From Lama guanicoe (Eukaryota): DNA of 64,000 bases. The DNA lies in the NCBI GenBank assembly GCA_013239625.1, contig MU053758.1, forward strand, positions 3,643,490 through 3,707,489. The letters are read 5' to 3'. The translations under genes and the position numbers were made by a program. Under the pieces are notes generated by a model. The model saw nothing but the letters and a program-made list of their open reading frames with translations. It was not told the origin of the DNA and did no database searches. Positions 42,448 to 47,170 of the stretch are shown here, piece after piece. Numbering within the stretch: position 1 is the stretch's first letter; each line of letters starts with the position of its first letter.

Positions 42448-45400
42448 TTTATTTGCTGATTAACGAAGAGCACGTGCTCCGAGGCAGCAAAGACAACCGG
42501 AAACATCCCTCAAGAGAGCAATGAGCCCATGGAATGGGAGTGGCGGTTTCTAAGGGGCATGGGCTAGGGCGCCCCCTGCAGTATGACAGCACATTGCACA
42601 TGGACCACGTCCTGGCGCTGCTCCTGGTCTTCCTTCCTGCCAGGGCTGGCCCTCCTCCCTTGGTGGCCACTGACCTGTGTCAGGCTTGGCTTAAGGAGGC
42701 ACCAGCCACCCAGCTCAGGTCCCTCCAGGATCCAGTGGAGCCAGGGCACTTAGGTAGCGCCCGGGGGGCAGGACGCACAAGGCACACAGACGGGTCACGC
42801 TGGGAGCGGGTGCACCAGGGGGATGGGAGCTCTTGGATCACGGGTTACAGGGCAACCTGCAGAAGAAAGGCACATGGGCAGGATTAGAAAGAAGCCCAGC
42901 TCCGCAAGGAGTCCAGTCAGTGCTGTCCCACCCCCACCACCCCATGCCTCTCAGTCCCACCCACTGCCCACAGTCTCCACTCAGCTTACCGTGTCCCAGC
43001 CTCATGGTCTTCACCGCAGGACCACAATGGCTTCCTAATTGGTCTCCCTAACCCCACTCTGGCCCCTCCTAACCATCCCCACCTTCGTGGCCAGAGTGAT
43101 CATATACAAACACGAGTCATGTCCCTCCCCTGCCCAAAACCTCAGTGGTTCCCATGTGCGCTAGGATCAAGAGCAGCCTCCTCCAACTCAAATGCCTTCT
43201 CCTCCTTTAAGCCTCCCCTGATCTCTCTGTGTGGAATCGCTCTATGGGCCTCTTTGCCTCCTTCCAGAGTGGTGTGTGATTATTCTCCTATGGTCTGTTG
43301 CCCCATTAGTTAGGCTAAAGTCACACAATCTGCCTCACCTCCCCAGGAAGATAGAAAAAGATGGGACAGAGGATGCTAAAGATGCGTTAGAGGGGCCCTG
43401 AGAGGACCGTGGGCCACTCAGCAGCATCCCGGGGGTCTTCCAGCTCCACCTGGACACCCCTATGATGCAGGAGGCTTCCTGTCACTTTGGCAGAAGCCAA
43501 GAGCAGCATCAGGGTTTGTTGGATCCATTTGGACTAAAGTGGGAAATGTGTATCCGCAGCCACGCTCCCAACCTGTGTTCATGTGGGAAGGAGGGCAGCT
43601 AAAACCTGGCTTTACTTGGTTCAAGGCCCAAGTTAGAGCAGGCTCCTCCCAGGCTTGGCTGCCAAGGCGAGAAAGTTGCTGCGGCTGCCGCTGTGCTGAG
43701 TAATAACTCCTTATTAGCAGCTTCCTGGGGCTGTTCCCAGTCCTCTGATTTAGGTGGGATGAGTCAGGTGCCTTCTGGCTCTCCCGGAGTCCGTGGTGAC
43801 AGATTGTTACTGTACACTTAAGCCTAAGGAAACCCAGCCAGGGTTCAGAGGCATTTGTTCTTTCAAATCCGAAGTCAAGAGGTTGAGCATCAACCCAGGG
43901 AAGAAGGGGAAAAACACCAGAGCTCAGGTGGGCTTTGTGGCACGTGGGTGCCTGGGGCTAAGGACTTCCCTCCTCGGACCTGCAGGGGATGCAGAAAAGC
44001 CAGAGAGTAGGGGGCTGACTTGCGGCTTGTGGATTAAGTGTATTACATGCAAACAGACGAGAGAAAGGGGACCAAGGATGGGGAGAGAAAAAAGAAAATC
44101 ACTGCAGTTCAGCTCTGCCTTAGAAGAGATGGGGGTCAGCCCCACAGCCCAGCCTAGCGGAGACCCACTGGCCATTCCGCGTCAGTTCCAGAAAACAACC
44201 CCCTCGGGCACCTCGCACCGCTCTACCCCTAGTATGTGGCTCTCCTTAGAAAAACAAGTCACCGCAAGCACTTGGTGATCACATAGTTCCAGGAAATGCA
44301 GAAGGAAGGTGGTTAGCATTTCCAAATAGCAACCAAGGGACAGGTGTTTACGACCTGTGACCTCACTGAATTCTCATAGCCGCCCTGGTTGATAGAATTG
44401 TTCGCATTTTACAGAGGAGGCTCAGAAAAGTTAAATAAACCAGGAAAGTCACAGAAATGATATGCGGCAGGCCTAGGAATTGCAATCCACATCTACCAGT
44501 CCCAAAACCCCACCTTCTTCCCACTGTCCTTCCTAGGGCCACCTCAGCAGGACTTCAGTTCTCACCTCCTTGTGGTTCTTCTGGAGGCACATCAGCTCCT
44601 CCTTCAGGGACTCCACCTGCATCTCCAGGTCAGCTTTGCACAGGGTCAGCTCGTGCAGGATTCCGCGCAGGCCATTGACGTCAGCCTCCACCAGTAGCCG
44701 CAGGGCCAGATCGGTCTCAGACCTGGGTAAGGACCAGGTCAGTAACTGAGGAATGAACTTGAATACAGAGCTCAGGGAAGGCCTGGCACTGCTGGAGCTT
44801 TTCCGACTGTCGGAACCAGTGGATCGCGGCCCCCAAGCATGTGCGGGAGCGAGTCTCCCCCAGCTGCTGGCCAAACTCACTTGGTCCCGAAGCTGTCAGC
44901 CGCCAGCTTGGTGTTGTCAATGTGCTCAACCATCCTGGCATTCTCTGCCTTGGTACACAGAACCTAGGGGCCACAGCACACACAGAGGGTCAGTCCAGGA
45001 CAAGAAGAAAGAAAAAGAACCCAAATGAGGACTGATAGGGCTCAGCGGTCCCGCAGCCATCCCTGCAGAAGGTCCTGGAACTCTGAGGGATATTCAGCGA
45101 ATTGCTGGTCCTTCAAGAGCATGAGTTTGTTTGTTTTTTTTTTTTAAGTACCTGGGTCTTCATAAAGTTGCATGTCCCACTTTGGATGCAATGAGCAACA
45201 TGAAAGGAAATACTCTGTTAAGTGTGGATTCATTCACATGACAGTTAGAAGGGTCCTTAAGCACTTACATTTACTGAAAACTCACCAGGTACCAGGGGCT
45301 GTGCTAAGCGCGTTACCGGCATCAACCCATGGAATCTTCTCAACATAAGGACCATCATCATCCCCATTTTACACATGAGGAAACTGAGGCCCAGGGAAGG

Positions 45401-46091
45401 GACCTCCTAGAGTCATGTAATGGATCAATGACAGAATTGAGACTAGATCTCAGACCTTTTTCCAGATTAAGGGCTCTGGCTGAGCACTCAAATCATGAGA
45501 TAATTCTACACCCTAGGGAAGTCTCTTTCCCTGACCATCGCTTCATCAATTAATGAGATTTAAATCTGGAAGGCCAGCTATTCCAATCGCCCTCCCAGGG
45601 AATCTGTTCACCACTTGCCCTCACCTTCTGCTGAAGTTCCTCTATAGTCTTGAAATAAGACTGGTAGTCAGGACACAAGGTGTGCCCTTGAGACTGGCAG
45701 GCCCCTTAAATCTCTCACTCCAGCTCCGTGTTGTCCCGCTTCAGCTGCCGCACCTTCTCCAGGTAGCTGGTCAGGCAGTTGTTCAGGGACTGCATGGTCC
45801 CCTTCTTGTTGCCATTGAAGGAGCCTTTGCAGGACCAGCTGCAGGTAGCTATGGAGCTGGAGATGCCACTGGTCGGCCCACAGCTGCTGGGCCGGCAGGA
45901 CTGGACAGGTAGGCCTTGGAGACGCAGCTGGCTGTCCGGTAGGTGGCAGGCGTGCAGACGGAGGGCACCCATGTCAGGGGCTGGCAGGCATAACCCAGGC
46001 ACAGCTGCGGCCGTCGGCTCATGCTGCTGGAGCAGACCTAGGAGGGCCGGGGGCCGCCCTTGAGGGAGGCTGGGCAGGGGTTAGATGTCAC
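42448..46091 (-). pseudogene. KRT32: KRT32 (Ha2, cuticle keratin) pseudogene
   Basis: Exon 1 45625-46091 (GTG in place of [35 protein letters not shown][frameshift]..SGISSS..ELE*EI*..). Exon 2 44881-44963 ([12 protein letters not shown]..). Exon 3 44566-44722. Exon 7 42750-42856 (LPCNP*...VCVPCASCP..RY). No exons 4-6 in the 1.7-kb gap. AATAAA 42448-42453. Syntenic position next to KRT35. Confidence 0.9.
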
Positions 46092-47170
46092 GTTGGAGAG
46101 GCTGCCACTACCTGGGCTACAAGGACCTGAATTGCTAATGTCCTCCAGCCCCATTCTGCCCGGGACCTTTCTGTACCCTTGGGGGCAGGGGGCTCATGCT
46201 CGAAAGTCCTCATGGAGTGGTGTTGATGACCTGGCCCCAGAGGAAGCTGCTAATTAATTTGTAATTTGGTTTTCAGTAAGGAGTTCCTTTCACCATAAAA
46301 GAGGCCAAGCTTGTCATTTGGCTAACCCAGGACTCCAGGCTTCCATCACTGATCACAGGAGACAGCTTCCAGACCCATCTTCAAAGGACCAGCTCCTTCC
46401 CTGGGCTCTCATTAGCAGGATGGGGCTGCCAGGAGACCACGGCAGCCTGGGCCCCTGTACCCTGACCTACTCCAGCCCTGATAATGGCCACAGTTCTATG
46501 GGGCAGTGGCCACTGCTTTTAATGAGAGCATCCCCTGTGGGAAGAGGCCTGGCCCCTTAAGGAGGGAATGTGTGGGTAACTAAAGCAGCACTGATACTGG
46601 GAGTAGTGTAAATCCAGGGAGGAGGGAAGACCTCTGAGGTGTCTTCATGTGGCTCTTCTTCCTCGGGGGAAGAAAATGATCACAGGGAGGAGAGAGCAAA
46701 CTCAAGACACCACAGAAAGCCTGAGAATCGGGGACATCCTTTCCGCCGGATGCTGCTGAGAAAGAGAGGGGCGAGGACGCCCCTCTGGGAATAGGAGGTC
46801 AATGTCGTGAACACCCCCGTGAGACAGATACTGTCTCTGGCTCCTCCCCTTCATTTCTCGCTGCTCCACGTAGAGTTGGGAGAGTTCGGTGGTCGTTGGC
46901 TGCACAGGCTGGAACTGGCTCTGCTTTTACTTTCCGCAGTGGAGGGCTCACTGCGGGACCTCAGAGACCCGGAGCAGGGTGAATCTGCTCCCTCGAGAAG
47001 GGACACTGTAGCCCTGGAAGCCAGGGGGCCAGGAGCAGGTATCTTCCATTAGAGAAGCCCTTGGGCGCTTCCTAAGAAAGCAACAGGAGAGACGGTGGTT
47101 TTCAGTCATTGCCTGCAATACTCGTGGGCTCACACGTGCCGTGTTTCATACGCGTGTGTTACAGAGCCCC

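Follow-up and report, generated by a model that had tools for sequence, protein, structure and literature searches.

We analyzed a stretch of 64,000 nucleotides (nt) of contig MU053758.1, hereafter the window, which is part of the type I hair keratin cluster and carries every gene on the minus strand. What is left of KRT32 (42448 to 46386, minus strand), the gene of the hair cuticle keratin K32, is flanked by a KRT35 that is intact and by the remnant of a gene at the KRT38 position. The original prediction had described this feature as a KRT32 gene lost through many lesions, and all of the lesions that it listed (GTG, TAG, TGA, TAA, the frameshift, LNNCLT, and the TGA of exon 7) were found on the minus strand at or beside the predicted positions.

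The remnant of exon 1 (45625 to 46091), which covers the head, coil 1A, and the linker, retains an intact GT donor. It opens with GTG (46091 to 46089) in place of the start methionine of the orthologues, carries a TAG stop at codon 18 (46040 to 46038), and has lost 1 base between 45900 and 45899, which shifts the frame. In the ancestral frame, LNNCLT (45786 to 45769) replaces the helix-initiation motif LNDRLA, and two more stops follow, a TGA (45717 to 45715) and a TAA (45708 to 45706). Exon 2 (44881 to 44963; 83 nt) and exon 3 (44566 to 44722; 157 nt) have open frames and intact AG and GT splice sites. The coding remnant of exon 7, the tail exon (42750 to 42856), keeps its AG acceptor, is out of phase with exon 3, and has more indels as well as a TGA stop (42840 to 42838); an AATAAA poly(A) signal lies at 42453 to 42448. 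Because introns and AG/GT sites are kept at exons 1, 2, 3, and 7, the gene was disabled in place and is not a processed copy.

Not all of these lesions weigh the same. GTG and TAG are both present as predicted, but neither would be lethal alone because an intact in-frame ATG (46022 to 46020) lies downstream of both, and most ruminant K32 models begin at the codon matching it. The frame from this ATG closes after 57 residues owing to the frameshift, and the longest methionine-started frame on the spliced remnant has 85 residues. The decay of LNDRLA was likewise borne out in part: LNNCLT is there, but the D-to-N change is also found in ruminant K32 proteins, which read LNNRLA.

Exons 4 to 6 are missing, as had been predicted. 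We searched for exons on both strands with protein profiles from 21 K32 orthologues and with DNA profiles built from the neighboring genes. The profiles for exons 4, 5, and 6 recover these exons in all four neighboring genes that have them (Expect values [E] of 1e-19 to 1e-47); between 22.3 and 53 kb they yield no credible match on either strand, the best E being 6.0 for exon 4 and 0.51 for exon 5, with no match for exon 6. The exon 5 score is a cross-match to exon 1. The DNA profiles concur, with matches below 0.05 in the same interval falling only on KRT32 exon 3 and the KRT38 remnant. What remains between exons 3 and 7 is a fused intron 3/6 left by the deletion (42857 to 44565), with no repeats of at least 14 nt that would mark a junction. 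At 1709 nt it is not strikingly short compared with 1901 to 2713 nt in three intact neighbors, and the case for a deletion is therefore the missing homology and not the length.

A functional type I hair keratin gene has seven exons with about 400 to 470 open codons and encodes a complete rod. Here, four exons remain, LNNCLT stands for LNDRLA, and coil 2 with the TYR..LLE motif is gone. The decisive lesions are the frameshift and the deletion of exons 4 to 6, and the locus is incapable of making K32.

The promoter tells a less certain story. Where the neighbors carry a TATA box, the remnant reads TACAGAAA (46175 to 46168, minus strand), 84 nt upstream of the GTG; the TATA boxes of three neighbors lie 74 to 92 nt upstream of their starts. 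The predicted sequence is thus in place, and by comparison with these paralogous neighbors it is probably a decayed TATA box. Farther upstream, CTTTGAAG (46379 to 46386, minus strand) lies 295 nt from the old start codon, and we take it to be a LEF1-type site, following the label of the original prediction. It does survive at a fitting position, given that the genes at 12693 and 22124 carry the same 8-mer 300 and 309 nt ahead of their starts, but it is not above chance: the window holds 4 matches against 5.17 expected, and 73 of 100 shuffles reach 4. We therefore rejected the 8-mer as a statistical signal; its support is positional.

Homology and gene order identify the feature as the KRT32 orthologue. 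A K32 exon 1 profile matches head positions 2 to 70 at the remnant only (E 1e-23), and the exon 7 (tail) profile scores best there. When the head piece was searched for among longer proteins, the sole return (1 of 11 candidates) was P0002, a 261-residue camelid-like protein record that is a read-through model of a different copy. A search with P0002 gave 601 matches; among the best 120 of these, 46 of the 49 matches after P0002 itself bear the name K32 or Ha2 in their source records or are rod models from pig or platypus, and the K32/Ha2 matches, which span mammals, rank ahead of nearly all K31/K33 matches. In a tree of 37 rows and 243 columns, from which K39 and K40 were left out and in which K37/38 is represented by one fused bat model only, the remnant and P0002 pair with each other (100/100) within the K32 clade (100/99), apart from K31/33/34, K35, K36, and the K37 model; the same tree gives no settled placement of the remnant inside the artiodactyls. 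Neither the tree nor the counts include P0046, whose alignment was poor and which seemed to be a mixed model. Placement with another paralogue, named beforehand as grounds for refutation, did not occur, and on the profiles and the tree we rejected an assignment to KRT37/38 or to another paralogue. Relative to intact mammalian K32 (type I cuticular Ha2), the remnant agrees in the sequence of head and tail, in the lengths and phases of its exons, and in its place in the cluster, and it differs in lacking an open frame and exons 4 to 6 and in its altered helix-initiation motif. The gene order K36-K35-K32p-K38p-K31 agrees with that tabulated for alpaca, and KRT32 also lies between KRT35 and KRT38 in the tables for cow, sheep, elephant, and seal (PMC5540548).

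P0002 shares the decisive damage. It has the valine start, the shifted residues at the frameshift, LNNCLT, and the jump from exon 3 to exon 7, it has gaps at the three later stop sites (TGA, TAA, and the exon 7 TGA), and it too lacks exons 4 to 6. Whether the lesions are shared was a check proposed with the original prediction; that they recur in a second record argues against an assembly error, and the prediction's claim that sequencing error is not the cause is supported. At the codon 18 TAG site P0002 has a tyrosine, and this stop is therefore younger or polymorphic. In addition, of the 24 sequencing runs listed, 14, which come from 5 organism codes and 5 studies, contain 0.88 to 0.94 of 417 sampled words of the stretch, shares that apply to the stretch and not lesion by lesion, and one of the 14 may be the window's own source. 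Six RNA or possible-RNA runs hold 0.06 to 0.16 of the words, which is no evidence of expression, and none of the 24 runs is from follicle RNA.

These data bear on the possibility that a working KRT32 lies elsewhere in the genome, in which case the remnant would be a dead duplicate or a product of assembly. The copy search covered the window, the lesions were read from assembled sequence, and KRT32 is listed for alpaca chromosome 16 (PMC6598621), all of which would leave room for such a copy. However, the remnant occupies the single syntenic KRT32 position, P0002 has the same lesions, the 14 runs hold the stretch almost whole, and a camelid K32 appears neither among the best 120 matches of either protein search nor in the orthogroup described below. 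We regard a working copy elsewhere as very improbable.

The age of the loss can be gauged from the columns shared by the two copies. The consensus used for comparison was made from 11 intact proteins; of the 216 columns scored, with the frameshifted residues 65 to 75 left out, 40 are derived and common to the remnant and P0002, a few of them being older artiodactyl states. The two copies differ at 10 real columns, plus 4 columns disturbed by removed stops, and most of the decay thus precedes their split. The tree agrees in showing a stem of 0.27 for the pair and tips of 0.011 and 0.05. The host of the window can be placed by the neighboring K35, which differs from two alpaca K35 records at 2 to 3 of 455 residues and from four Camelus records at 10 to 12; being nearer to alpaca than to Camelus, it points to a South American camelid. 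A K35 differing at 2 residues marks the window as a South American camelid haplotype other than that of the alpaca.

How far the loss extends among camelids is indicated by published orthogroups (PMC12127551, Data S1), in which the KRT32 row is filled for cattle, human, mouse, and pig and empty in alpaca, Bactrian camel, dromedary, wild camel, guanaco, llama, and vicuna. Three of the seven camelid columns were lifted from alpaca, which leaves four independent ones. We take this row of the orthogroup table to be that of KRT32, given that three accessions attributed to KRT32 meet in it. In neither protein search is there a camelid K32 among the 120 best matches, in which camelid K31-, K33-, and K35-type proteins do appear. 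Together with the shared lesions and the shared derived columns, the empty orthogroup supports the old loss put forward in the original prediction, and a shared one. The split between Old and New World camelids is dated at about 16.3 million years ago (PMC12127551), and the simplest interpretation is a single loss ahead of it.

Alternatively, KRT32 could have been lost twice and later, in South American camelids and in Camelus (or be mis-annotated in Camelus), after fast functional evolution like that seen in ruminants. Ruminant K32 shows a rod divergence of 21% to be compatible with a protein that is still made, the Camelus case rests on annotation and not on sequence, and the loss of K24 illustrates that a camelid keratin loss can stay within one tribe (PMC6662840). 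Set against this are the several lesions, among them a multiexon deletion, common to the window and a copy that departs from it in about 10 of the 216 columns, and the lack of a KRT32 model in all four directly annotated camelids (PMC12127551), for which one loss is simpler. Two losses are accordingly unlikely.

We favor, with a probability of roughly 0.78, the reading that the feature is a unitary KRT32 pseudogene, inactivated a single time on the camelid stem and decayed since, in animals whose hair cuticle was buffered so that the loss was tolerated and not selected. KRT32 would have been inactivated once, probably before the Old World and New World camelids separated some 16 million years ago. 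The frameshift closes every frame inside exon 1, 57 residues on from the ATG that survives; with exons 4 to 6 deleted, coil 2 is gone and exon 3 is out of phase with exon 7. Any KRT32 transcript would presumably be degraded or yield a short peptide. The cuticle would still form, with K82 and K85 pairing with the K35, K39, and K40 that camelids have kept. Weak constraint on K32 in non-suine artiodactyls may have allowed the loss to be tolerated without being favored by selection.

The buffering part of this proposal draws on the composition of the cuticle. Human hair cuticle contains K32, K35, K39, K40, K82, and K85 (PMC11816140), and K35, K39, and K40 are the proposed partners of K82 (PMC8831607). 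Alpaca K82, K85, K35, K39, and K40 are listed as intact (PMC5540548), and the KRT82 and KRT35 rows, for which the symbols were confirmed, are filled in all seven camelids (PMC12127551). The integrity of the partner KRT82, which the original prediction had marked for checking, thus holds at the annotation level. The rows that we take, from their accessions, to be KRT85, KRT39, KRT40, and KRT36 are also filled in 7 of 7 camelids in the orthogroup table. With K82, K85, K35, K39, and K40 kept, K32 would have been lost alone and with substitutes at hand, and K35 is a candidate substitute partner for K82.

Several points weigh against the single camelid-stem loss. Lesion sharing compares the window copy with one camelid-like record, P0002, that is not tied to a species. 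The evidence for Camelus is at the annotation level, where an empty orthogroup reflects annotation and not Camelus DNA, the search for KRT32 copies covered the 64-kb window and not the whole genome, and 15 of the 66 members of the largest K32 protein cluster are listed. Retention of K82 is also an annotation-level finding, and RefSeq KRT82 models can be corrected models. The 2019 alpaca assembly paper lists KRT32 among chromosome 16 genes without a caveat (PMC6598621). In humans, loose anagen hair segregates with a KRT32 missense variant that is heterozygous and reduces binding to K82 (PMC12409965), so that K32 is not dispensable in every setting. Protein divergence, finally, dates the loss poorly: the rod of the remnant is no more diverged than that of cow K32, and sheep K32 has been detected in wool (PMC11482551).

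This last point deserves numbers. From the consensus, the remnant rod diverges at 29 of 136 positions and the 11 intact non-ruminant mammalian proteins diverge at 0 to 13 of 138. Cow, deer, and goat reach 29 to 30 of 138 (cow, 30 of 138) and hippo 25 of 138, and the remnant does not differ from cow (Fisher P = 1.0). We rejected as decisive a dating of the loss by amino acid excess (29/136 versus 62/~1518 pooled; P of 1e-11), a pooled comparison that is circular in that the consensus was built from the same 11 proteins. The ruminant K32 models mostly have 401 to 406 residues and lack the first 23 head residues plus about 20 more head residues, and the hippo model, of 366 residues, begins still further in (models compared: P0160 to P0162, P0167, P0168, and P0208). 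With the ruminant rod equally diverged and sheep K32 present in wool, fast change of K32 is no proof of death. Across mammals, missense constraint on KRT32 has a GISMO-mis score of 1.02, in decile 8 of 10, where 1 is the most constrained (PMC13754592). Constraint on K32 looks weak or relaxed in all non-suine artiodactyls sampled, and the divergence suggests that selection on K32 has been relaxed or redirected there. For gene loss, KRT32 presumably also falls in decile 8, on a gene identifier not confirmed in the table. Because ruminant K32 is so strongly remodeled, a story confined to camelids is weakened.

Could the loss have been more than tolerated? The removal of K32 may have altered the K82 filaments of the upper cuticle and given camelid fibers their smooth-edged scales, perhaps with a selective advantage. 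K32 is a binding partner of K82, and in people a variant changes both the filaments and the anchorage of the hair (PMC12409965); crimped wool contains more K32 and K82 than straight wool does (PMC11482551); and South American camelid scales are described as smooth margined (PMC11812008), which is compatible with the idea. Against it, four other cuticle keratins persist, the adjacent KRT38 has also decayed, as would fit a general shedding of minor hair keratins, and K32 is remodeled across ruminants and hippo. We consider a favored loss decidedly improbable.

A broader hypothesis, still rather doubtful, is that camelids are furred natural K32 knockouts that keep K82 and that the loss shapes their fiber, with K82 filaments built with K35, K39, or K40 and smoother scales, as one extreme of a decay of K32 that runs more widely through the non-suine artiodactyls. 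If so, the short-headed, fast-evolving ruminant K32, the truncated hippo model, and the whale pseudogenes would form a decay series, the K32/K82 pair would be dispensable for the cuticle, and the state of K32 might tune scale form in wool, cashmere, and alpaca. In the literature examined, we found no published link between K32 state and scale shape either way, and the fiber proteomics supplement yielded no keratin names, controls included. We treat the effect of KRT32 loss on cuticle scale structure, raised in the original prediction, as a hypothesis.

Returning to the single, tolerated loss that we favor, it is not new for alpaca. An alpaca "K32p pseudogene," alongside an intact K82, is entered in Additional file 1 of Sun et al. 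2017 (PMC5540548), a paper whose main text has 0 occurrences of "K32." The loss in alpaca has thus been on record since the 2017 supplement and was apparently never discussed. Our literature search, in which broad queries were seen in part and mostly without subscription journals, found no text discussing KRT32 loss in camelids, and the supplements of PMC6598621 and PMC11812008 gave no match. The alpaca entry and the remnant agree in gene, state, and gene order; the table gives no lesions, date, or meaning (PMC5540548). It also calls the K32 of African elephant (7x assembly) a pseudogene, and given that our protein search includes a K32 of 454 residues from Asian elephant, the table is not error-free (PMC5540548).

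Two known losses provide comparisons. KRT32 is inactivated in cetaceans (bioRxiv 2020.11.15.383638; PMC5540548; PMC8733776), the same cuticle keratin in another artiodactyl lineage, but whales are hairless, and in them K82 is gone as well, as are many other hair keratins (the bowhead has K32p and K82p; PMC5540548). Camelids, unlike whales, are densely furred and keep K82, K85, K35, K39, and K40. The loss of KRT24 in Camelus (Ehrlich et al. 2019; PMC6662840) likewise concerns a single type I keratin with premature stops. K24, however, belongs to the cornea, and its loss is confined to Camelus, with the alpaca gene intact (PMC6662840), whereas K32 appears to be lost in both tribes.

K32 and K82 are a textbook pair of hair cuticle keratins (PMC6367960, where camelids are not mentioned). 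That camelids are healthy and densely furred without K32 suggests that its absence is tolerated, and the human missense variant would then act in a dominant-negative manner rather than by simple loss. In fiber genetics, KRT32 should no longer count as a candidate gene in alpaca, even though one assembly paper includes it (PMC6598621). To the existing record our analysis adds the lesion map, the likely family-wide extent of the loss with K82 kept, and the relaxed constraint on K32 in ruminants and hippo.

The rest of the window is arranged as follows, with all genes on the minus strand. KRT35 (53068 to 56977), the upstream neighbor of the KRT32 remnant, is intact, with seven exons, 455 amino acids, and zero internal stops. 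Its intron 3 contains a short tandem array (54845 to 55118) with a period of about 69 nt, copies 95 to 98% identical, that begins at the end of exon 3. Partial genes lie at either end, one ending at 2110 and one at 62 to 64 kb, and a further gene starts at 12693.

The downstream neighbor of KRT32 is the remnant at the KRT38 position (29442 to 29909), of which exon 1 alone is recognizable, with a frameshift and a stop, and whose TATA box is intact. Its label comes from gene order and not from the tree; it matches the alpaca "K38p pseudogene," which comes after K32p in Additional file 1 of PMC5540548. Its exons 2 to 6 were looked for and not found, and 22.3 to 42 kb shows no separate trace of KRT37. 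The rows of the orthogroup table that we take, from their accessions, to be KRT37 and KRT38 are empty in all camelids.

The gene at the K31 position (18147 to 22124, start at 22124) has a frame open through exon 6. It differs from the dromedary protein at 12 sites within the first 365 residues, several of the changes hit residues conserved in its neighbors (W19, L47, V82, and A186), and its tip in the tree measures 0.032, versus 0.004 in dromedary. This gene is possibly under relaxed constraint. The three K31/K33/K34-type genes share blocks that are 91 to 98% identical, introns included (1749 to 2118, 12332 to 12701, and 21763 to 22144; 9698 to 10482 and 19395 to 20336), as would be expected from gene conversion.

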